From Shigella phage phi25-307, in the sequence record MG589383: 64,000 bases of DNA, one strand, 5' to 3'. This document shows positions 3,490-62,919 of this stretch, in pieces (position 1 is the first letter of the stretch; the number at the start of each line of letters is the position of its first letter). Made by a program: the position numbers and the translations under genes. The notes below the pieces were generated by a model. That model worked only from the letters and a program-made list of their open reading frames with translations, did not search any database and had not been told where the DNA came from.

Positions 3490-3970
3490 TAAAAAGGTAA
3501 TGATTCCCAAATTAGGGCTCAAACATTATAATCTTTTAAAGGACGTTAAAGGCCCTGATGAAAACATGAAAATCTTAGCAGATTCTATTTGTAAAAATAT
3601 GAGTCCAGCAGATTTTGATTTTGCATGTCTACACATATTGGAATTTAATAACAAACTTAAGTCTGAAGTTGAAAAAGATGGATTCACTTATAAACTAGAT
3701 GACGTCTATGTATGCCAACGAACAGAATTCCAATTTCAAGGTAATACTTTTTATTTTAGACCCCCGGGCAAATTTGAACAATTCGCTACAATCAGTGAAA
3801 TGCTATCAAATTGCTTAATAAAAGTTAATGACGAAGAGAAAGAAATTTCTTTCCTTGAGATGCCTGCTTTTGTAATCAAATGGGCAGAAGACCTTTCGAC
3901 AACTATTGCTATTCCAGGCCCTAATGGCCCTATTAAGGGTATAGCAGAAATTATTGGATTGCTTGAATGA
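3437..3970 (+). CDS. 28: baseplate hub distal subunit gp28 (177 aa)
   Basis: Size identical to T4 gp28, synteny; overlaps 3-prime end of gene 27. Confidence 0.82.
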
Positions 3971-15053: not shown

Positions 15054-15091
15054 TTATTCTCCAGATGTTTAAGTTGTTTGTTGGTACAGGT

Positions 15092-15124
15092 CTATAATAA
15101 CAAAACCTGTACCAAAGTAAACAT
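15092..15124 (-). promoter_or_regulatory. T4-type early promoter with inverted repeat GGTACAGGT/ACCTGTACC flanking -10
   Basis: Minus-strand GTTTAC..17 nt..TATTAT; palindrome 15085-15112. Confidence 0.5.
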
Positions 15125-15537: not shown

Positions 15538-15570
15538 CTATAGTAACACATCCTACAGGAGAGTAAACAT
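15538..15570 (-). promoter_or_regulatory. T4-type early promoter (-35 GTTTAC / -10 TACTAT)
   Basis: 17-nt spacer; upstream of ORF 15127-15498. Confidence 0.5.
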
Positions 15571-30495: not shown

Positions 30496-30579
30496 TTTGA
30501 TTTCCTCATGTTGTTGATAGAACTATAATATCACATCTAGGGAAGAAGTAAACAACTTTTTTGGCAATTTACAGATACT

Positions 30580-40310: not shown

Positions 40311-43300
40311 ATGGCTACATTAAAACAGATACAATTTAAAAGAAGCAAAGTAGCAGGAGTTAATCCTACTGCAGCACAATTAGCCGAAGGCGAATTAGCG
40401 ATAAACTTAAAAGATCGAACTCTTTTTACTAAAGATGACCTCGGTAATATTATTAGCCTAGGCTTTGCTAAGGGCGGGGATATTAACGGTAATGTAACTC
40501 AAAATGGAGATTATTTACAGAACGGTACATATAATCTCAATGGAAACCAGTTTGTTTATGCAGGAAAATATATTGAATTTTTACCTAAAACTGCAGGCAA
40601 TGGTGCTTGGGCTAACCAACATTTGAATAAAGCCCCTATCTTTACAGATTTAAGTTCAACTACTTCTGTTTCAGAATACCATCCGCTGATTAAACAACGC
40701 TATAAAGATGGAACTTTTTCTGCTGGTACATTAGTAAACGAAGGTAGTTTTAAATTCCATTATATTGATGAAACCAGGACTTCAAAATACTGGACTTTTA
40801 ATCGAAACGGTAATTTTCAAGTTGATTCCGGAAGTTTATTAGTATCTAATGGATATTTAGTTACTCAAAGTAATATTGAAACTAAAGCTGGTTCTTTAAT
40901 TGGTCCTAAAGTTATTACCAAAAATATCAATGTGAGCACTAAATCTTGGGACACTAATATTGATACTGCATATGATTTAGTTTCATTACCTACTTGGCAG
41001 TATACTCCAACCGAAACGGATTTGGATACTAATGGTATAAACTACCTTCGTAAATTCCGCGGACATGTTTCTTCTGCTATTTTCCATGAAGTTGCTGATG
41101 CTCGTTCAGGTAAACCACAGAATATTTCGTATTGGACGGGACGTAATGCTGAAGTTTATCAATGGTCTTATACCACAGATGGGCGTATGTCTGTTGCTAA
41201 TTCGATAGGTATAGGTCTTGCTGATGTTGGTGACCAAGGACGTTATCCATTGGTTTCGTTTGGTAAAGGTATTGCAATTGGTGACAATGATACTGGTATT
41301 AAATGGGTTCGTGACGGGGTTATCGATTTAGTTGCGAATGGTATTTCTGCCGGCACTATTCTTAATAACGGTATTAACAGTACTAAAAAATTGATGGTCG
41401 GTTATAGCCGCGATTCTGGTACTACTTGGGATTTCCCAAATAACAACCAAGCAATGTTTACCGCACGCACCGATGTTGATGGTAATAATAACGGCGATGG
41501 TCAGACTCATATCGGTTATAACAGTAATTCTAAAATGTATCACTATTTCCGTGGTACAGGTCGTATGGCTGTTGGTATGTCCCAAGGTCTCCTTGTTGAA
41601 CCAGGAATTTTAGATATTAGCACTGGTTCAAATACATTAAGTTTGCGTGCTGACGGTACTGTTGCTTCTGTTCAAACGTTAAAGCTTAATAATGGATTAT
41701 ATTTTAATGGTGATGGAACTAATGCTTCTTTAGTTTTTAAAGCAGCTTCAGGTATTGATGGCACTAAGCAAATTATGTGGGAAGGTGGTAAGCGTGCTGG
41801 TCAAAATAAAAGTTATGTGACAGCTAAAGCTTGGGGTAATTCATTTAACGCATCTGGCGATCGTAATCGTGAAACAGTTTTTGAAGTAGCTGACGGACAA
41901 GGTTATTACTTTTATGCGCAGCGTGTAGCTCCCGCTTCAGGATCTACTGTCGGACCAATTCAATTTAGAATTGCTGGAGCATTATTAACCGGTGGTGGTA
42001 TTACATCATCCGGCTCGATTGTTACAGAATCAAGTTTAGTTGCTAATAACGGATTATCTGTAAATGGCCAGGCTAAATTTGGCGGAACAGCTGATGCATT
42101 AAGAATTTGGGATGCCGAATATGGCGCTATTTTCCGTCGTTCAGAAACAGCATTACATATTATCCCGACCAATAAAGATGCTGGTGAATCTGGTGGAATA
42201 AGCAATCTGCGCCCATTGAGCATCGCACTTAACAACGGTATGGTTCAAATGCGTCATTCTGTCACGTTAGGTGATGATGGTGCAGGCGGTAATATGATTA
42301 CTGTGGACAACGATAACAAACTTGTTGTTGTTACTAGTCATAGTCGTATTTCTCCTAATTACCGTATGCAGGTAGGACAAGCAGCTTATATTGATGCTGA
42401 ATGTACTGACACCGTTCGCCCGGCTGGTGCAGGGTCTTTTGCTTCACAAAATAATGAAAACGTTCGTGCTCCGTTCTATATGAATATTAATCGCACAGAT
42501 ACAAGTACTTACGTTCCTATTTTAAAACAACGTTATGTTCAAGGAAATAGCTGTTATTCTTTAGGTACTTTAATAAATGGCGGTAACTTCAGAGTTCATT
42601 ATCATGAAGGTGGAGACGGAAGTTCAACAGGCGCAACTATAAAAGATTTAGGCTGGGAATTTACACGTTCTGGTGATTTTATATCTCCTAAGCGCATTTC
42701 TGCTGGGGGTTCAGTTTATTTAGGCACAGACGGTAACATTACTGGTGGTTCTGGTAATTTTGCCAACTTAAATAGTACAATTGAATCACTTAAAACTGAT
42801 ATTGTTTCAAGTTATCCTATTGGAGCTCCGATTCCTTGGCCTACTGATACACCTCCTGAAGGTTACGCCATAATGGAAGGTCAAACATTTGATGCTGGCT
42901 TGTATCCTAAGTTAGCTGCTGTGTATCCTTCCGGCTCTCTGCCTGATATGCGTGGTCAAACTATCAAGGGTAAACCATCTGGGCGTGCTGTATTAAGTAC
43001 AGAAGCAGACGGTGTTAAGTCACATAGCCATAGTGCAAGTGCATCAAACACGGATTTGGGTACTAAAACCACTTCTAGTTTTGATTACGGTAGCAAAACG
43101 ACTTCAAGCTTTGATTATGGTACTAAGACCAGTAATACCACTGGCAACCATAACCATACAGTGAGTGGTAATACTAGTTCCGCTGGTGCTCACCGACACG
43201 CGCGTTCAGGCCCTCAGATTCAATACGGCGTACACACTAGCATATTCTATGATGGATACAATAGTGCTGGTCCAAATGGCAACGCTAAAATCACTGGAAC

Positions 43301-43568
43301 CGTGAGTGGTGCTACTGCATCGTCGAATATGGCCAAAACTTCTTCAGACGGTGCCCACACCCATAGTTGGTCTGGTACTACTAGCACCACAGGTAACCAT
43401 GCCCACACCGTAGGTATTGGCGCCCATACTCACACCGTAGGTATTGGCGCTCACACCCATTCGGTTGCAATTGGTTCACATGGTCATACAATAACTGTAA
43501 ATGCCACAGGAAATACAGAAAACACAGTTAAAAACGTTGCTTTTAACTATATCGTTCGTTTAGCATAA
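40311..43568 (+). CDS. 37: long tail fibre distal subunit / receptor-recognising gp37 (1085 aa)
   Basis: Size, synteny, C-terminal HxH repeat region, followed by T4-type gp38 gene. Confidence 0.9.
43407..43514 (+). repeat. four tandem 27-nt coding repeats in gene 37 encoding H-x-H-[TS]-[VI]-x-[IV]-[GN]-x units
   Basis: CATGCCCACACCGTAGGTATTGGCGCC / CATACTCACACCGTAGGTATTGGCGCT and two degenerate copies, in frame. Confidence 0.8.
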
Positions 43569-47424: not shown

Positions 47425-47456
47425 CTATAATATCATGTTTGAAGCACATGTAAACT
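47425..47456 (-). promoter_or_regulatory. T4-type early promoter upstream of motA
   Basis: Minus-strand TTTACATGTGCTTCAAACATGATATTAT. Confidence 0.5.
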
Positions 47457-52316: not shown

Positions 52317-54530
52317 TTATTTGGCCGCTTCCACGGCCTTCATGAATTTAACGATTTGAGCGACCTGTTCTTTGGAAAGAGTACCACGTCGTCCCATGTA
52401 TTCTGACACAATATGATAATTGGTTTCGAATTCAATAACCATTTTATCATCATTATCGTAAGCATTATCTTTAAGCTTATCGAAAATTTTAGCACACAAT
52501 TCTAACTTCTTATTCAGGTCTGTATTAGTAGCACCTGCGAATCGATTCCATCCCCAACGATTATTTACTGTTGAGAGTTTTGCAAAGTCTTTACTGATTT
52601 CTTTGTTCTTAGAGCTAAAATACTTACTAAGGAAGTTAAGCTCTTCGTTACGAGTAATATGATTCAAATAAGGCTGTGCTCTACGACTTGGTGATACATA
52701 CTCATCATAATCCACTTTGTCAATTAGCGTAATATAGTCATTAATTGATTTTTCGAACAAGCATTCTACTTCACCAAGTTTACGAACTTTCTTAGCAATC
52801 TGTGGACGGACTACAGTGAACTCTTTAATACCTGACAAATCAGCAATACGAGTCAAGAAACTAGAATCATAGTTCAACCAACCTTTATCTGCGTCAAGAC
52901 ATTCGGCGTTAGAACGATTACGAATTACAACATAACCTTGAATCTCATCGGCTTTACCGGCCGGAATAAAGAGATCTTCTGATACCCAAACATCGTTTTC
53001 ATTCTTAAAGAACCGATGAGCACTTGGGGATTTAGGACGAGGCTGCGATGAACGTTCTTTAACTTCAATCCACGGTTTAACTAATGCAAGAATTTCAGAG
53101 GTCTTATAAAATTTAAGGCTATCACCAGCGAAAATAACCTTTAATCGTTCTAGAAGTTTCATTGCAACTTCATCTTCCGGATTAACGAATAATACGCTAC
53201 TACCCCATCCGGAAGGAACCTTATCAACGAGTGTTGATGCATCGGTGGAAGTCAAAGCATCGTTCAGAGCACGCATCATTGGTACGCGGCCTTTCACATC
53301 GTCAATAACAATATCAATATGCTTACGACTAATACCTAGCAGGCTATTAATTGAAATAGTTGAAGACGAGCTTCCGCTTTCACGAATACGACGAAGTCGT
53401 GGATCTGAAACGATATCGTATACAACACCAAGGTTGCACCATTCAGGTCCCATTTTAAACCGTTTGTACAACTCAGAATAAGTTAGCTGTTCTTTAGAAT
53501 ATTTCAGTGATTCAATATTAGAACCGGCTTTTTCCATGTATTTACGAGCAGAGTAACCAAGAGAATCGATTTCACGGAATACATGACGTGGATATTCACA
53601 ATCAATCCATTTCTTAGAATCTTCAGCAAATAATTTTGCATCGATTTCTGCAACACGTTTATGGATATTTGCTACTGTACGTTTATCAAATGACAATGCT
53701 TCACGAGACGGGGCTACATCTAGTTCACCCATAGGGAATTTAATATAAGCTGTAGTGCATCGCGTCATCATCCATGTTTGTTCTTTAATAACACTTCCGA
53801 TTGGATATACAATACCACCATAAACAGCCATGATATTACCACGTTCACCCCATGGAGCTTCCTTGGCTAAATAAACATCATCGAATTCCGGGAAGTATTT
53901 GATATCTTTAACACCACGAACTTCTGCAATATCGCCGAGAGGACGCATAACATATGCAATTTCAGATGCGAACTTTTCAAAATCTTCTGGGTTAACCGGT
54001 ACAACTACTTCTACACCCGTACGGTCATCAGGGCCCATCTTATCTACAAAGGTTGGCTTAATCTGTGGACCGCTGTCATCTTGATAAATTACATAACCAC
54101 GAACTTCACCGTTGTGATAAGACGTAAGGTTAAACGTATCGGTATACGCTAGTGGAGCTTTAGAGCCGAGTCCGAATCCACCAATGAAATCGTTACTCGA
54201 TGTTTTAGTTGAAGCAAAATATGAATTATAGATTCCTGGCTCTTCGTCATTACCTCGAATGGTGAAATCACTCATACCAGGACCAAAGTCTCGAACTACA
54301 AAACGTGGGTCTAAACGACCTGGAGCCTGAACAATAAACTTATCAGTGCAACCATTAAGAATTTGACCATCGATACAGTTTGTGATTAATTCGCGTACAC
54401 AAGCCAATTCTTTGTTTGTATAAAGGTCATTAGACAAAATCTTATAAACTTTGCTATTGCCTTGAATAGTAAATGCTGTGCTCTTATCGCCTGAACCAAT
54501 AATCGTTTCTTTAGCCGTTTCAATAATCAT
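52317..54530 (-). CDS. rIIA: rIIA protein (737 aa)
   Basis: Collinear with T4 rIIA (CVRELITN, GRLDPRFV.RDFGPGMSDF, DFIGGFGLGSK, GPQIKPTFV, IYGGIVYPI). Confidence 0.93.
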   Translation of the reverse strand: MIIETAKETIIGSGDKSTAFTIQGNSKVYKILSNDLYTNKELACVRELITNCIDGQILNGCTDKFIVQAPGRLDPRFVVRDFGPGMSDFTIRGNDEEPGIYNSYFASTKTSSNDFIGGFGLGSKAPLAYTDTFNLTSYHNGEVRGYVIYQDDSGPQIKPTFVDKMGPDDRTGVEVVVPVNPEDFEKFASEIAYVMRPLGDIAEVRGVKDIKYFPEFDDVYLAKEAPWGERGNIMAVYGGIVYPIGSVIKEQTWMMTRCTTAYIKFPMGELDVAPSREALSFDKRTVANIHKRVAEIDAKLFAEDSKKWIDCEYPRHVFREIDSLGYSARKYMEKAGSNIESLKYSKEQLTYSELYKRFKMGPEWCNLGVVYDIVSDPRLRRIRESGSSSSTISINSLLGISRKHIDIVIDDVKGRVPMMRALNDALTSTDASTLVDKVPSGWGSSVLFVNPEDEVAMKLLERLKVIFAGDSLKFYKTSEILALVKPWIEVKERSSQPRPKSPSAHRFFKNENDVWVSEDLFIPAGKADEIQGYVVIRNRSNAECLDADKGWLNYDSSFLTRIADLSGIKEFTVVRPQIAKKVRKLGEVECLFEKSINDYITLIDKVDYDEYVSPSRRAQPYLNHITRNEELNFLSKYFSSKNKEISKDFAKLSTVNNRWGWNRFAGATNTDLNKKLELCAKIFDKLKDNAYDNDDKMVIEFETNYHIVSEYMGRRGTLSKEQVAQIVKFMKAVEAAK

Positions 54531-54542
54531 ATTTTTCTCTCA

Positions 54543-54743
54543 TCACAAGTTACGTTTAAAAATTTCTGCTACTTCAAGAAGTTCTTCTTTAGTAGCTGTA
54601 TCGGTTTGTATTTTATATCGAATTTCCTTAAAGCGTTCTTTAAAGGCTTCAGCTGATTCGATATCAAAAAATCTTTGGATAAGCCGGAATTCCCGGAGCA
54701 CAGCTTTATCAAAAAGTTCCAAGTCCACGTTATATGTTCTCAT
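54543..54743 (-). CDS. hypothetical protein rIIA.1-like (66 aa)
   Basis: ORF immediately upstream of rIIA; SD GAAGAGAAT. Confidence 0.5.
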   Translation of the reverse strand: MRTYNVDLELFDKAVLREFRLIQRFFDIESAEAFKERFKEIRYKIQTDTATKEELLEVAEIFKRNL

Positions 54744-54835
54744 AATATTCTCTTCAGTAGATTCCTAGGGCACTATTACTAAAGACCATATAATCTATCA
54801 TCTTATGTGTAATAGTGCCTCAGGCTATTCAGGAT

Positions 54836-55936
54836 TTACGCTGTGAAGATTTTATCCCACATCGCAACAACTGCATCTCGGTTATACTTCTTCCATACTG
54901 CTTCAGCACGTTTAACTCGAGCTTCGTATGTATCAGTGAATTCTAATACAGCTTTTGTGTAAAGCGCAACTACTTCTTTCTTAGGAGTAGAGGAATCAAT
55001 TTCTACACGCACAGTATCTGGGTCGTATTCAAATGTCGCATGAGGATAATCCTTAAAAACTAACTGGATTACAGGGACACCTTTAGAGATGGCTTCAATA
55101 GAACTATTCTCTACCGTACCTGTGTCAGGACATGTATTAATAAGTGCTTTAGCTGTTTTAAGACGTTCCATGATTTCACTGTGTGGAGCATCAATAATAA
55201 CAGGATATTTAGCTGGTGGTGCCCATTTGCTTGGACAGTATCCTACACCATTTTCGCCTAGTGCTTTAATCGCTTCAAGAGCAACATCAGTACGACGCAT
55301 TTTAGTGTCATAACGTTGTGCACTAATAATCAGATCAGTCGCCGGAAGAACTTCAGGTTTCTCATTCAAACAAATAACCGGATAATCTTCGGCTTCAAAC
55401 AACGGATTTGCTCGCCAATAATCATAATCAATTTTGTCAGTCAGAGCTGAAGTCATATGGCAATATTTACGTTCAAATTCACGGAAGGCTTTAGTAGGAG
55501 CATAACTCTTACCGCCATTCTTATGAATTTGAATAGTCTGGTCCCAAATTTGAACAATGCCACGAGATACCGGTTCAAATGGTGTTGCCATAAAATTCTT
55601 ATGAACTTTAGAGAGACCTGCGTCTTTAATTGCCTGAACGGTTAGTTTAGTCGGTTCCATAGTAACAACAAAATCGTATTCATGGATGCCGGCTAGTTCA
55701 ACAATCTTACGAGCCATAGTATAACTCATACCTAGACTGAATTTAGTCAGATGACCAACAGGATGGTGTGTAACTTTCCAGTCACCAAACGTGTCATTAT
55801 CAAAGCCGATATAATCAATATCAGCACCAATGGACACAAGATATTTCAACACATTTAAATGTACTGCTTCAAGGCCACCTTGTACACGGTCAGGATTAAA
55901 TGGGACTGCACGAGATGGGATAAACATAACTTTCAT
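54836..55936 (-). CDS. GT-B fold glycosyltransferase, GT4-like (366 aa); candidate DNA-hmC sugar transferase
   Basis: N-terminal GG.E motif (RVQGGLEAVHLNVLKYL) and C-terminal GT4 donor-binding signature (ENSSIEAISKGVPVIQ); position between rIIA.1 and gene 39. Confidence 0.6.
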   Translation of the reverse strand: MKVMFIPSRAVPFNPDRVQGGLEAVHLNVLKYLVSIGADIDYIGFDNDTFGDWKVTHHPVGHLTKFSLGMSYTMARKIVELAGIHEYDFVVTMEPTKLTVQAIKDAGLSKVHKNFMATPFEPVSRGIVQIWDQTIQIHKNGGKSYAPTKAFREFERKYCHMTSALTDKIDYDYWRANPLFEAEDYPVICLNEKPEVLPATDLIISAQRYDTKMRRTDVALEAIKALGENGVGYCPSKWAPPAKYPVIIDAPHSEIMERLKTAKALINTCPDTGTVENSSIEAISKGVPVIQLVFKDYPHATFEYDPDTVRVEIDSSTPKKEVVALYTKAVLEFTDTYEARVKRAEAVWKKYNRDAVVAMWDKIFTA

Positions 55937-55978
55937 AATTAAGCCTTATTAAAATTAAAATGAAGCTCCCGAAGGAGC

Positions 55979-56791
55979 TTAGGACATCCAACACATTTTA
56001 TAACCTTTGCAGGTTCTGTTAGGATTATTTAATGCTTTCAATATATTAGAAGACCCTATATCTAAATACTCCCTTAATTCATAAAGATAGTTAAAATCAA
56101 TAGTTTCACCTGTTTTTACACTTGTGATTCTTATAGGCCTTCTTTCATATTTAGATTTATACAACTCTCTAGTCTTAGCTTTAGTTTCTTCTGACCTAGG
56201 AGTGTATGGTTTAAATCCTTTTGTTTTAAATGTTTCCATTCTTGATTTAGTTATTTTATCCTGGTGTTCTTTTGTTTTTACAGGTGCTTTTCGCCCATTC
56301 TCCCAAGATAACTTGTTGGCCTGTATTATTTTATCTATTGCTTCTTGCGTATGAGTTTTACCATAAAATGGATTTAATTCGCCTATACGTTGTGAAGCAA
56401 TATGTGACATTAATTCTCTTGTTGCTTTAGTATGTTTTTTACCTTTAAATGGGTTGCCATTTTTAGCAATCCATTCTTTCATAAATCTAGAGTGCTCTTT
56501 AGAGAATTCTTGTTTAAGCCAATCATAATCTCTAGAATTTCTAGCTCCCATGTAAAAAGCTCTAATAGCCATAAGCATAGAACGGTTCTTATGAATTTTA
56601 TAAAGCAATAAATGGGCGATAAAATGCTCTCTAGGGGTCATTTTAACTAGATTTGATTTAGCATTACTCCCACCCATAGATTTAGGCAAAATATGGTGAG
56701 TTTCAGTATAATTAGGAATAGTGCTGCGGTTTTTAGCCGCAGCGATAAGTTTATCATAAATTTTACGATAATTCATTATCCTAGCATCCAA
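55979..56791 (-). CDS. free-standing HNH homing endonuclease, Mob-like (270 aa)
   Basis: HNH core (TETHHILPKSMGGSNAKSNLVKMTPREHFIAH) plus repeated NUMOD-like DNA-binding modules (NPFKGKKHT, NPFYGKTHT); overlaps 3-prime end of gene 39 by 16 nt. Confidence 0.8.
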   Translation of the reverse strand: MDARIMNYRKIYDKLIAAAKNRSTIPNYTETHHILPKSMGGSNAKSNLVKMTPREHFIAHLLLYKIHKNRSMLMAIRAFYMGARNSRDYDWLKQEFSKEHSRFMKEWIAKNGNPFKGKKHTKATRELMSHIASQRIGELNPFYGKTHTQEAIDKIIQANKLSWENGRKAPVKTKEHQDKITKSRMETFKTKGFKPYTPRSEETKAKTRELYKSKYERRPIRITSVKTGETIDFNYLYELREYLDIGSSNILKALNNPNRTCKGYKMCWMS

Positions 56792-58596
56792 TCTTTACGG
56801 AGTTCAGGGTCGTTACCCATGAGCATTTCAAATAGTTCTTTCCAATTTTCAGGAAGTTTAACTACGTCGTACACAGGGTTTTGAATCATTTCTTTATATT
56901 CATCCCGCTGAAGTGAGCCCAATCCCTTGATGTATCGAATACTATGCTTAGGCAGTGTATCTTTGGCTTCTTCATACTCAGCTACAGTATAAAACCATTT
57001 TTGAGTTTTGCCAATTTGTGCAATAATTACAGGCGTTTTAACAAAGCGAATACGTCCTTGTTCAAACAATTCAGGCCAATTACTAAAGAAAGCAAGCAAA
57101 GCCGGATAAATACTTCCAAGACCGTCATGATCGGCATCGGTCATAATTGCAATATTACGATAGTTCGTATTCTCTGCCTTTTCACCAAGAATAAGACCTG
57201 TGATAGCACAGATATCAAAGAGCTCTTTGTTCTTCATCATATCAGCATATGACATACCCCAGCTATTCATCACCTTACCACGTAATGGGAATCCACCGTG
57301 TAGTTCACGGTCACGAACATCAATGAGATAACCAATTGCCGAATCACCTTCTGTTAAAAACAATGTCGTATCTGCATCTTTACCACATTGGTTAGCTTTA
57401 ATATGCTTATGAACCTTAGCTTTAGTTGCCTTTTTAGCTGCTTTAGTTTCTGCAGCCTTTTCTGCTGCCAATTTACGAGCTAATGCTGCTTCAACAATAG
57501 GCATAATCAAAGCTTCATTTTTAAGAAGTGCCTGAGCAATTTTCTTAGCATCTAATTGGATATGATTACGAATATCACCATACGTTGACGTTAAACGTTC
57601 TTTAGTCTGAGAATCAAAACGCATGTTGCTCATGTCTCTAATAAACATCAACATTGTGAGGCATTCTTTAACACGAGCTTTAGTGACTTCAATACCCTTA
57701 TATTTCTTTTTAATACCGGGCAAAAGATGTTCGCAGATATCATCCATTACACATTCAACATGATGACCACCATTTTTAGTATGGATGTTATTCACATAAG
57801 TTAAATGACGGAAGCCATCTGGTGATGTTGTGAATGCTATAGAGACTTTATCATTTTCTTGAATGATGTTATCTTCGCCAAATTGTTTAGCAAATCGTTT
57901 AAAATTACCATCAACCTTTTTACCATTAAATGTGAACTTGATATCAGGATAAACGACTGCCAATGTTTGAAGACGGTCTAAAGTAATATCTAAATAAATT
58001 TGAGATAAATTATGCTCTTCAAATGAAGAGAAATCAGGAGTGAAGATTACTTTAGTGCCTTTACCTTTAGATTTCTTAGAAGACCATGATTTGTTTTCCA
58101 TTCCGTTTGAACAGTTAACAGTGATTTCATTTTCGCCATCTGACGTGATGCCTGTAAACAACGTAGAGAAGATATTAGTTAAACTACTCCCGACGCCGTT
58201 CATACCACCAGTCTTGCGTTCAGAGTCATCACCAAAGTTACCACCGGCCTTTGGAATAGTCCAGGCCGCTACAGGCCCAGGAATTTGTTCACCTGTTTGG
58301 TCGGTAACTAAACCTTGAGGAATACCACGTCCGTTATCTTCCACTGAGACTTGATTATTTTTAATTTGCACATCAATTTTATTTGCAAACTTAAATGATG
58401 TACGAATAGCTTCATCAACCGAGTTGTCAATAATCTCATCGATTAATTTAACAAGACCAGGAACATATTCAACTTGTTGATATTTACCAAACAAAAAACG
58501 CTCATGGGCTTCTTTAGCCGAAGAACCAATATACATGCCACTGCGTTTCTTAATATGTTCTACATCTGACAATACCTTAATTTCATTTTTAATCAT
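56776..58596 (-). CDS. 39: DNA topoisomerase II large subunit, fused 39+60 type (606 aa)
   Basis: GHKL ATPase N-terminus collinear with T4 gp39 and Toprim C-terminus collinear with T4 gp60 (AIMTDADHDGLGSIYP.LL.FFSNWPELFEQGRIRFVKTPVIIAQ) in one uninterrupted frame. Confidence 0.93.
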   Translation of the reverse strand: MIKNEIKVLSDVEHIKKRSGMYIGSSAKEAHERFLFGKYQQVEYVPGLVKLIDEIIDNSVDEAIRTSFKFANKIDVQIKNNQVSVEDNGRGIPQGLVTDQTGEQIPGPVAAWTIPKAGGNFGDDSERKTGGMNGVGSSLTNIFSTLFTGITSDGENEITVNCSNGMENKSWSSKKSKGKGTKVIFTPDFSSFEEHNLSQIYLDITLDRLQTLAVVYPDIKFTFNGKKVDGNFKRFAKQFGEDNIIQENDKVSIAFTTSPDGFRHLTYVNNIHTKNGGHHVECVMDDICEHLLPGIKKKYKGIEVTKARVKECLTMLMFIRDMSNMRFDSQTKERLTSTYGDIRNHIQLDAKKIAQALLKNEALIMPIVEAALARKLAAEKAAETKAAKKATKAKVHKHIKANQCGKDADTTLFLTEGDSAIGYLIDVRDRELHGGFPLRGKVMNSWGMSYADMMKNKELFDICAITGLILGEKAENTNYRNIAIMTDADHDGLGSIYPALLAFFSNWPELFEQGRIRFVKTPVIIAQIGKTQKWFYTVAEYEEAKDTLPKHSIRYIKGLGSLQRDEYKEMIQNPVYDVVKLPENWKELFEMLMGNDPELRKDWMLG

Positions 58597-59907: not shown

Positions 59908-59968
59908 AATATTCTCCTCTTGTTTTGATAGGTCTATAGTAACACATCTAGAGGAGAAGTAAACAACT

Positions 59969-61605: not shown

Positions 61606-62919
61606 TCAAATAAAATGGACGTCAAACCGGCCACGAGTTGTGCCGACATACAATAACTGTTTAGCTAATTCTGAATCGGCATAATGGATACACGGTGTAT
61701 AAACAAAGGCCGTGTCAACAGACATACCCTGGGCCTTATGGAAGGTTGATACTGGTAGTGCCTTCACCTTAGTGAACATACGTTTAGCATCCCAGAATTC
61801 GCTCCATGGAGCTTTACCACCTTTATTCCAAAATTTGTATGTTTCTGCGGTCTTAGCCAAAAACAAATTGAATTTATAAAGCTCTTCTTCAGAAGAAATA
61901 ACCTTTATATCTTCGCGGATGTATTCTTCATCATCCCCATATGTTTCTACTGTAAGATTCCAGTATCGTATCATATATTCGCCCGAAACACCACGTGCTT
62001 TAACGAATGTAGACGTTTCTACAGCATCTCTAATACGAACGAATTGGCCGTTATTGAAAAGCATTTCGGTAATATTTTTACCATCTAGCTTATATGTCTT
62101 AGTAAATGGCTCCTGTAGAACAATGACTTCGTCTTTAATAAATGGTTTTTCTGTTTCAAGAAGTTTTCGTCGAATAATTGAATTTAACTTGTCCACCGAC
62201 TTATTTGTGAATGCCATCATTCGATTTTCGAAAAGGTCTTCAGGAGTTTTAACGACGTTAAAATAGTTCATCATATACGATTTAAGGTCTGTATATCCGT
62301 GAACACCATGTCCATCAACTACTTTATCGTAAATCCATTTGCCATTACGAATATCAGTAGCAACATCAATAATTGGTGCATTGCTACGTTTAACTTCTGT
62401 AAGGTTGCATTGCACGAAGTCTTTGTGAGTGAAGAAAGGACTTAGATACGCAGTTGATTCGCCTGGGTCTACCGGACGAATCTGGCATCGGTCGCCGATG
62501 CCAATTACTGTACACCATTTAGGGATACTAGCTAACATTATTTTAAACAGAGAACGGTCGCACATTGACGCTTCATCAAATAACAGTACACGGCACAAGG
62601 CTAGGTCTGGAACCTTTTTCTGTTCAAACAATACGTTTTCTTCGTATGTAGTTGGGTTGATTTTAAGAATGCTATGAATAGTCGATGCTTCTTGTCCCGC
62701 AAGTTTACTTAGAACCTTTTTAGCGGCATGTGTAGGGGCTGCTAAAATAATACCTGATTCTCCAGAAGAAATAAGGGCTTCAACGATGAATCTAGTAAGG
62801 GTTGTTTTACCTGTACCAGCAGGCCCATTAATAGTTACGTGATGTTTCTTTTCTTTAATAGCGTTCATAACAACGTTGAAGGCGTTTTTCTGGCCTTCAG
62901 TCAAATCATCAAATGTCAT
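61606..62919 (-). CDS. dda: Dda DNA helicase, SF1B (437 aa)
   Basis: Collinear with T4 Dda (MTFDDLTEGQKNAFN.VM.AIKEKKHHVTINGPAGTGKTTLT, STFHKAQGMSVD.AF.YTPCIHYAD). Confidence 0.94.
   Translation of the reverse strand: MTFDDLTEGQKNAFNVVMNAIKEKKHHVTINGPAGTGKTTLTRFIVEALISSGESGIILAAPTHAAKKVLSKLAGQEASTIHSILKINPTTYEENVLFEQKKVPDLALCRVLLFDEASMCDRSLFKIMLASIPKWCTVIGIGDRCQIRPVDPGESTAYLSPFFTHKDFVQCNLTEVKRSNAPIIDVATDIRNGKWIYDKVVDGHGVHGYTDLKSYMMNYFNVVKTPEDLFENRMMAFTNKSVDKLNSIIRRKLLETEKPFIKDEVIVLQEPFTKTYKLDGKNITEMLFNNGQFVRIRDAVETSTFVKARGVSGEYMIRYWNLTVETYGDDEEYIREDIKVISSEEELYKFNLFLAKTAETYKFWNKGGKAPWSEFWDAKRMFTKVKALPVSTFHKAQGMSVDTAFVYTPCIHYADSELAKQLLYVGTTRGRFDVHFI

Follow-up and report, generated by a model that had tools for sequence, protein, structure and literature searches.

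What does a long-loop inverted repeat do in the short gap between a glycosyltransferase gene and the rII genes of a T4-type phage? We examined this question in Shigella phage phi25-307 (sequence record MG589383), an RB69-like phage of the genus Mosigvirus, taking as our window the whole stretch of 64,000 nucleotides that was analyzed. The first-pass annotation had placed the repeat between a glycosyltransferase ORF and rIIA.1, and both gene labels proved right. All local genes lie on the − strand, in the order gene 39, HNH ORF, ORF003c, a 92-nt spacer, rIIA.1 and rIIA. Because these genes run from right to left, the sense RNA is that of the − strand, and a TATAAT on the + strand is antisense to them. 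The glycosyltransferase ORF corresponds to RB69 ORF003c, which has been proposed as a DNA arabinosyltransferase (PMC6024577) and appears in a later paper as a putative second arabinosyltransferase (PMC13326640). Near the repeat, a window position equals the RB69 position plus 52316. The features of the locus, from upstream to downstream, are as follows.

56776-58596, − strand: topoisomerase gene 39 (fused 60+39)
55979-56791, − strand: HNH/NUMOD3 endonuclease ORF of 270 aa, between gene 39 and ORF003c
55963-55980, − strand: UUCG-tetraloop hairpin with a U-run
54836-55936, − strand: ORF003c (RB69 ORF003c/gp3 ortholog), putative DNA arabinosyltransferase, GT-B fold
54744-54835, − strand: ORF003c–rIIA.1 spacer, 92 nt
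54825-54835, − strand: 11 nt separating the ORF003c stop codon from the hairpin base
54809-54824, − strand: 5' arm of the RNA hairpin, CCUGAGGCACUAUUAC, with its perfect core at 54809-54819
54780-54808, − strand: A+T-rich 'loop' with an inner helix, by fold prediction
54789-54794, + strand: TATAAT hexamer, read from the sequence, antisense to the local genes and outside any recognizable promoter
54764-54779, − strand: 3' arm of the RNA hairpin, GUAAUAGUGCCCUAGG, with its perfect core at 54769-54779
54744-54763, − strand: rIIA.1 leader; a Shine-Dalgarno-like GAAGAG lies 6 nt upstream of the AUG
54543-54743, − strand: rIIA.1 (Pfam T4_RIIA1, E = 3.7e-30)
52317-54530, − strand: rIIA

The left arm of the repeat, GGCACTATTAC (54769-54779), has its exact reverse complement, GTAATAGTGCC, at 54809-54819, which makes a perfect 11-bp inverted repeat with its arms 29 nt apart (54780-54808). 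The interior carries G or C at 7 of its 29 positions and is 76% A+T. The arms, the 29-nt AT-rich spacer and the TATAAT that the first-pass annotation had described are all borne out by the sequence, save that its 12-nt left arm holds for only 11 nt: the first G (54768) faces T54820 as a G·T and does not belong to the perfect match. Beyond this core, the repeat extends to 16 nt per arm (54764-54779 and 54809-54824), with 14 of the 16 positions complementary (88%) and two that are not Watson-Crick; in the sense RNA, these are a C·A mismatch between 54768 and 54820 and a U·G wobble between 54767 and 54821. We compared the repeat with chance expectation by first-order Markov simulations, counting perfect 11-bp inverted repeats with loops of 3-40 nt. 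The simulations gave 0.99 ± 1.25 such repeats per 64 kb, with at least one in 58% of simulations, and the window has three. The frequency of the bare 11-bp repeat is not significant, since roughly one per 64 kb arises by chance. In context, that is, by its intergenic place and by the strength of its fold, the repeat does stand out against chance. The other two 11-bp repeats of the window lie inside long ORFs, which leaves the ORF003c–rIIA.1 repeat as the sole intergenic example; non-ORF sequence makes up about 6.5% of the window.

For a 70-nt RNA of the sense (−) strand, the predicted folding energy is −28.5 kcal/mol (z = −5.69); none of 200 shuffles is as good, and one structure accounts for 72% of the ensemble. 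This fold tied for second among approximately 16,000 70-nt − strand windows (mean −10.6, sd 3.9), and the − strand windows that equal or exceed its stability are inside ORFs. The + strand fold of the repeat is weaker, at about −22.7 kcal/mol, and ranks approximately 13th on that strand. The predicted architecture spans about 61 nt and consists of a 16-pair lower stem with one mismatch, a 4 x 2 internal loop, an upper stem of 5 + 3 pairs and a 5-nt apical loop, for about 24 stacked pairs in all (16 + 5 + 3). In the inner helix, 54800-54804 are predicted to pair with 54782-54786 and 54796-54798 with 54788-54790, leaving 54791-54795 as the apical loop. Pair probabilities in the core were 0.99-1.0 in three sequence contexts. 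The hairpin ends 8 nt before the Shine-Dalgarno-like sequence, which stays uncovered.

The most stable 70-80-nt RNA folds of the window, at 62440-62520 and 43396-43476 (−31 and −32 kcal/mol), are both located inside long ORFs (61606-62919, −, and 40311-43568, +); the fold at 43396-43476 contains a near-repeat, with GCGCCAAUACCUACGGUGUG present twice, and its z-score is only −2.2.

A promoter and terminator scan returned no promoter-like or terminator-like site in 54744-54835 on either strand. Likewise, a search for GTTTAC-N17-TATAAT with up to three mismatches gave no match in the spacer, though the same search recovers the early promoters of the window. The scan and the pattern search together uphold, for both strands, the earlier statement that the region does not show the early-promoter pattern. 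T4-type early promoters (GTTTAC-N17-TAnTAT) are found on the − strand at 15094-15122, 15540-15568, 30525-30553, 47427-47455 and 59936-59964; several of them overlap inverted repeats (for example, at 15081-15115 and 59912-59958), a promoter-plus-stem arrangement that resembles the PeSL cassettes considered below. Direct reading of the − strand spacer found no GCTT or TGCTT (MotA box), where a T4-type middle promoter would carry (a/t)(a/t)(a/t)TGCTTtA 11-13 nt upstream of TAnnnT. For a sigma-70 or T4-type early promoter, we looked for TTGACA or GTTTAC 16-18 nt upstream of a TAnnnT oriented towards the gene. By direct reading, the hexamers at spacings of 16-18 from the TATAAT match TTGACA at no more than three of six positions, and there is no TG extension. 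The TATAAT is most likely an incidental piece of A+T-rich loop sequence.

Just 3' of the stem, the − strand reads CUAGGAAUCUACUG and the + strand CUAUUCAGGAUUUAC, and neither contains a U-run; the absence of a U-tract, which had also been reported, thus applies to both strands. The hairpin also departs from intrinsic terminators in that its stem is not G+C-rich and its loop is far beyond 3-8 nt. The only hit of the terminator scan in the region was the UUCG hairpin at 55963-55980. As judged from these features, the long hairpin is no promoter and no intrinsic terminator.

The published predictions for RB69 list 58 early promoters, 32 middle promoters and 31 terminators (PMC1524935 supplements) and place nothing at the equivalent RB69 positions 2452-2503. 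The nearest predictions are Pm:5538, Pe:6863 and the UUCG hairpin, listed as a terminator at 3649-3662; Pm:156 and Pm:5538 are the only middle promoters of the region, no early promoter lies below 6.8 kb, and the long hairpin is not called in the TransTerm list for RB69 (PMC1524935). No promoter is predicted between the UUCG terminator that follows gene 39 and rIIA, and rIIA.1 and rIIA would therefore have to be reached by read-through. This need for read-through makes an RNA-level role for the spacer plausible. Our literature search found no transcript start or end, processing or transcriptome data for any Mosigvirus.

The 1 kb around the repeat is 95-99.3% identical to 153 phage records, all of them Mosigvirus (RB69, JS09, HX01, ST0, phiC120, Bas46 and others). 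The repeat is present in every one of these 153 records and was found nowhere else, which answers the question of conservation in relatives that the first-pass annotation had raised. Homology with T4 and other genera covers rIIA.1 and ends at 54752, nine bases upstream of its start codon. The Mosigvirus-specific segment takes in the UUCG hairpin, ORF003c and, at its far end, the long hairpin, and sequence comparison makes the long hairpin a part of the segment that appears to have brought ORF003c. As read from its sequence, T4 has at the equivalent place (2404-2457) a 54-nt spacer with a GTTTAC-18 nt-TATAAT early promoter that encloses a CCACA/TGTGG stem; in other genera, a different gene abuts rIIA.1 with no spacer. 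Homologs of ORF003c with 42% identity occur in Acinetobacter phages. Downstream of one of them, in Acinetobacter phage KARL-1 (2623-2677), we found TTGAAA-17-CATAAT around a GGAGCC-UUCG-GGCUCC hairpin. The T4 and KARL-1 spacers thus read as promoter-plus-stem cassettes, and that of Mosigvirus as a stem only, although a much larger one. Since T4 has an early promoter at the very place where Mosigvirus has none, expression of rIIA.1 and rIIA in Mosigvirus would depend on read-through and on whatever effect the RNA structure has on it.

We next consider how the spacer varies. Over 108 nt centered on the spacer, identity is 99% or more in 124 of the 153 records and 96-99% in the others; over the surrounding 1 kb, identity is mostly 95-99% and only 7 records reach 99%. 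Diversity was calculated in 24 Mosigvirus sequences, a sample deliberately enriched for the most divergent spacers. In this sample, pi was 0.026 for the spacer, 0.078, 0.065 and 0.093 for the third codon positions of rIIA, rIIA.1 and ORF003c, respectively, and 0.002-0.011 for first and second codon positions; segregating sites numbered 13 of 92 in the spacer and 148 of 399 at third codon positions. The spacer is therefore 2-3 times less variable than neighboring third codon positions, despite a sample biased towards spacer variants. Within the spacer, 7 of 32 arm positions vary versus 5 of 29 in the loop, and this lack of additional conservation in the arms counts against a functional RNA hairpin. 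Common polymorphisms are found at 54826 (T/G), between the ORF003c stop codon and the hairpin, and at 54795 (C/T), in the apical loop. Long stretches next to the hairpin are invariant in all 24 sequences. The longest invariant stretch in 1.3 kb, 54827-54865 (39 nt), comprises the last nine codons of ORF003c, its stop codon and nine more bases, so that the last 27 nt of the ORF are unchanged, including all nine third codon positions; no promoter was recognized there. The 20-nt rIIA.1 leader (54744-54763) is part of the fourth-longest such stretch, 54737-54763 (27 nt), and both stretches touch the hairpin. Because runs of 9-14 invariant third positions also occur elsewhere, the invariance of the flanks is only suggestive.

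For the fold and covariation tests, we used 13 aligned haplotypes. The architecture of the sense-strand fold is retained in all 13, with energies of −24.6 to −35.3 kcal/mol, whereas the antisense fold falls to −14.7. Pairing is possible in 95.5% of alignment cells, but 427 of 500 column shuffles do as well. Among these haplotypes, the 11-bp core shows no double change from one Watson-Crick pair to another, and the only change on both sides (columns 12 and 64) occurs across two lineages at a pre-existing mismatch. Covariation is uninformative here because diversity is too low, with all relatives at least 95% identical; the statistics stay empty since the other genera lack the spacer and scans of metagenomes and IMG/VR for distant homologs returned only haplotypes already known. 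Three one-sided changes, namely 54770 G>A (ESCO47, EP32B), 54817 G>A and 54796 T>C (both SQ17), leave a G·U pair in the sense RNA but create A·C in its antisense counterpart. The 54772 A>G change of RB69 does the opposite, placing an A·C mismatch in the sense RNA, and counts against selection for the sense fold; the resulting bias of 3 to 1 towards the sense strand is not significant. The mismatch has been repaired independently in AV115/AV118 (54767/8 AG>GA) and in Shf125875 (54820 T>C), which gives perfect or near-perfect 16-bp stems at approximately −35 kcal/mol. The 13 observed substitutions had a mean ddG of −0.06 kcal/mol on the sense strand, compared with +1.86 ± 0.65 kcal/mol for random changes of the same type (P ≈ 0.001); the corresponding value on the + strand was P ≈ 0.07, and on the sense strand with the three mismatch-repairing changes removed, P = 0.19. 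The repairs are not proof of selection, because hairpin-templated mutation at the DNA level can make them.

In AV115/AV118, the AG>GA change that makes the perfect 16-mer also removes an in-frame TAG upstream of rIIA.1, and the annotation of AV115 starts rIIA.1 ten codons earlier, at a GTG within the arm of the hairpin.

The structure is thermodynamically exceptional, biased towards the sense strand, single-copy, genus-specific and conserved. For its role, the reading that we favor, tentatively and with a confidence somewhat short of even, is a processing or stability hairpin that acts at the RNA level within a read-through polycistronic transcript. The spacer would be transcribed with its neighbors in a pre-replicative polycistronic − strand mRNA that runs from gene 39 through ORF003c and rIIA.1 to rIIA, and the repeat together with its 'loop' would fold in this mRNA as one extended imperfect hairpin of approximately 61 nt. 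Such a hairpin could serve as post-transcriptional punctuation. It would shield the arabinosyltransferase message from 3'-to-5' exonucleases, be cut by a double-strand-specific RNase (RNase III), or both; either route would uncouple the decay of ORF003c and rII mRNA. We infer both transcription through the hairpin and its role. With this qualification, the possible 'regulatory boundary' proposed by the first-pass annotation is plausible.

The closest likeness in anatomy is to the early RNase III hairpins of phage T7 (R1.1 and others), which are intercistronic and whose 3' hairpin stabilizes the upstream message after cleavage. Like these sites, the Mosigvirus hairpin is intercistronic, would lie in a read-through polycistronic mRNA, comprises about two helical turns of imperfect duplex with an internal loop, and lacks a promoter or U-tract. 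The general anatomy of an RNase III substrate, at least about 20 bp of imperfect double-stranded RNA with an internal loop, is also found here (24 predicted pairs), and the resemblance is one of anatomy only. Unlike the T7 sites, with which it has no sequence relationship, it is a single site rather than one of a series and belongs to a T4-type phage; to our knowledge, RNase III has no established part in the processing of T4-type mRNA. By analogy, the hairpin might be a genuine RNase III-type site that severs the arabinosyltransferase message from the rII message, that is, a T7-style punctuation in a T4-type phage acquired along with a DNA-hypermodification gene, although we consider this more specific proposal improbable. 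If it were true, the phage could set the level of the arabinosyltransferase separately from the rII genes, whose early promoter, still present in T4, has been lost. More broadly, a functional hairpin would mark the way in which Mosigvirus has wired a DNA-modification gene, acquired recently, into the old gene 39–rII unit. As a compact 61-nt target with natural perfect-stem variants (AV115/AV118, Shf125875), it is suited to testing mRNA punctuation in a T4-type phage. Its scope is a single stem-loop in a single genus, and it alters no general picture.

The main competitor of an RNA-level hairpin is a neutral quasi-palindrome without a function of its own, a scar or by-product of the recombination that placed ORF003c between gene 39 and rIIA.1, which would persist, and at times be 'perfected', by hairpin-templated strand switching during replication. 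We regard this as possible, though rather unlikely. Templated correction at quasi-palindromes is the mechanism of T4 quasi-palindrome mutagenesis (Ripley model), and the imperfect repeat has been made perfect in some isolates, with the AG>GA double change of AV115/AV118 being the classic signature of such a correction. A neutral origin also fits the end of T4 homology at 54752, just outside the hairpin and at the edge of a Mosigvirus-specific segment, as well as the missing covariation and the arms that are no more conserved than the loop. However, the T4 case is a mutational phenomenon rather than a function, and likeness to it leaves unexplained why spacer diversity is 2-3 times below that of third codon positions and why the fold is stronger on the sense strand in 13 of 13 haplotypes. 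It would also be somewhat unexpected for compact T4-type genomes, with approximately 6.5% of non-ORF sequence, to keep a useless 61-nt insert in 153 of 153 records. The dependence of rII expression on read-through, with no promoter between the gene 39 terminator and rIIA, is compatible with another role, in which the hairpin pauses or attenuates RNA polymerase or bars Rho loading and so tunes transcription into the rII genes. If left unstructured, the 92 untranslated nucleotides might let Rho enter; effects of Rho on the delayed-early RNA of T4 have been reviewed (PMC2988021), and attenuation of transcription was demonstrated for stem-loops of RB49-type phages that lack obvious U-tracts (PMC2839356). 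Nevertheless, such a transcriptional device is improbable, given a loop that is overall far longer than those of intrinsic terminators, the absence of a U-tract on either strand and of anything specific to Rho, and the lack of a TransTerm call in RB69.

The remaining explanations are less likely still. Exact symmetry would suit a protein site in the DNA, with the arms (11-16 bp, centers 40 bp apart) bound by a dimeric repressor, a recombinase or a homing endonuclease, and phi25-307 does have a free-standing HNH/NUMOD3 gene 1.1 kb away. Yet the element is equally present in phages without the HNH gene (Bas46, RB69), the arm sequence recurs nowhere else in the window, the covariance model finds only itself, 151 of 153 records have one copy, and the arms tolerate substitutions that are mostly G·U-compatible in RNA; a DNA-level site is accordingly very unlikely. 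We hold a similarly low opinion of a translational coupling clamp, in which the hairpin would bring together the ORF003c stop codon and the rIIA.1 ribosome-binding site, and pairing of the flanks would mask the rIIA.1 start until a ribosome finishes ORF003c. Among the invariant stretches of the 1.3 kb, those that flank the hairpin rank first (39 nt) and fourth (27 nt) in length, and the MFE structure of a 111-nt context joins the AUG to the region of the stop codon at pair probabilities of approximately 0.7. This outer pairing, however, adds only about −2.4 kcal/mol, and its probability drops to 0.11 at 141 nt and to 0 at 181 nt; the best duplex between the two flanks (−7.9 kcal/mol) does not surpass those of shuffled sequences (P ≈ 0.24), and the hairpin stops 8 nt short of the Shine-Dalgarno-like sequence and leaves the ribosome-binding site uncovered. 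We rejected long-range masking of that site by the end of ORF003c, since the pairing depends on context and does not rise above shuffles. The least probable of these explanations, which we rate as highly unlikely, is that the + strand TATAAT starts an RNA antisense to ORF003c. The hexamer at 54789-54794 is a perfect −10, but neither an acceptable −35 at 16-18 nt nor a TG extension accompanies it, the promoter scan was silent, the site is unlike the T4-type late consensus TATAAATA, the base two positions upstream of the hexamer (54787) varies in one phage, and no + strand gene lies downstream.

An RNA-level processing or stability hairpin may also be set beside the other stem-loops known from T4-type phages. 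PeSL cassettes combine an early promoter with a stem-loop in RB49/phi1-type phages (PMC2839356). Like them, the Mosigvirus structure is an intergenic stem-loop beside an accessory gene, in a plastic region and at the boundary of a lineage-specific gene, and the T4 60–rIIA.1 spacer and the KARL-1 spacer downstream of the ORF003c homolog have the PeSL layout. Unlike PeSL, the Mosigvirus stem has no sense-strand promoter, is single-copy rather than dispersed, and is much longer and A+T-rich instead of GGGG/CCCC, with a 29-nt interior. With T4-type intrinsic terminators and UUCG hairpins, such as that at 55963-55980, it shares a stable sense-strand intercistronic RNA hairpin downstream of a stop codon, and it differs from them in the stem composition, loop length and missing U-run noted above. 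The Mosigvirus element is an intercistronic hairpin that is real, conserved and genus-specific, ordinary in kind and undescribed in particular.

With regard to copy number and known families, a pattern search found the arm sequence to be unique within the 64-kb window, and a covariance model built from the 13 haplotypes matched only the element itself. The 153 Mosigvirus records contain it at 155 places, with one copy per genome in 151 of them. No match was found by blastn in 5,426 E. coli genomes or 72,556 plasmids, and no Rfam 15 match overlaps 54744-54835, even at E ≤ 10.

A number of further candidates were tried and rejected. The spacer is not a MITE or REP-like element: it has inverted termini, but it is single-copy in the phages, without a host match and without a flanking direct repeat. 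As a PeSL cassette, it would be expected to have a strong sigma-70-like promoter and a dispersed repeated motif in tens of copies, and it has neither. The hairpin does not appear to have traveled with the glycosyltransferase gene, since the hairpin of KARL-1 is different (promoter-type UUCG) and is analogous rather than homologous. We dismissed a concealed sense-strand promoter, whether within the loop or at the 3' end of ORF003c, because no TAnnnT fits the −35, GTTTAC or MotA-box positions, and a RegB site because the spacer has no GGAG. As for a replication origin, T4 oriA has been placed near soc (PMC3016281), not near rIIA.1, and no shared origin motif is known. We also considered a split Shine-Dalgarno bridged by a hairpin. 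This arrangement is found in T4 genes 38 and 25; here, there is no Shine-Dalgarno-like sequence outside the stem on its 5' side.

Upstream of ORF003c, the UUCG hairpin (AAGCUCC-UUCG-GGAGCUU) is followed by CAUUUUAAUUUUAAU and lies between ORF003c and the HNH ORF, or gene 39 in the case of RB69; it is a predicted terminator both here (55963-55980) and in RB69 (3649-3662). The HNH/NUMOD3 ORF (55979-56791) is absent from RB69 and Bas46, and in Bas46 gene 39 is directly followed by the UUCG hairpin. In the phi25-307 window, the start of the HNH ORF overlaps an altered end of gene 39, and the ORF closes with TGG ATG TCC TAA, the codons that also end gene 39 of Bas46. This arrangement has the look of an insertion of a free-standing homing endonuclease at the very 3' end of the topoisomerase gene. 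Finally, the ORF003c homolog is annotated as two shorter ORFs in EP32B and LH01, and these splits may represent either inactivating frameshifts or indels of the putative arabinosyltransferase or sequencing errors.
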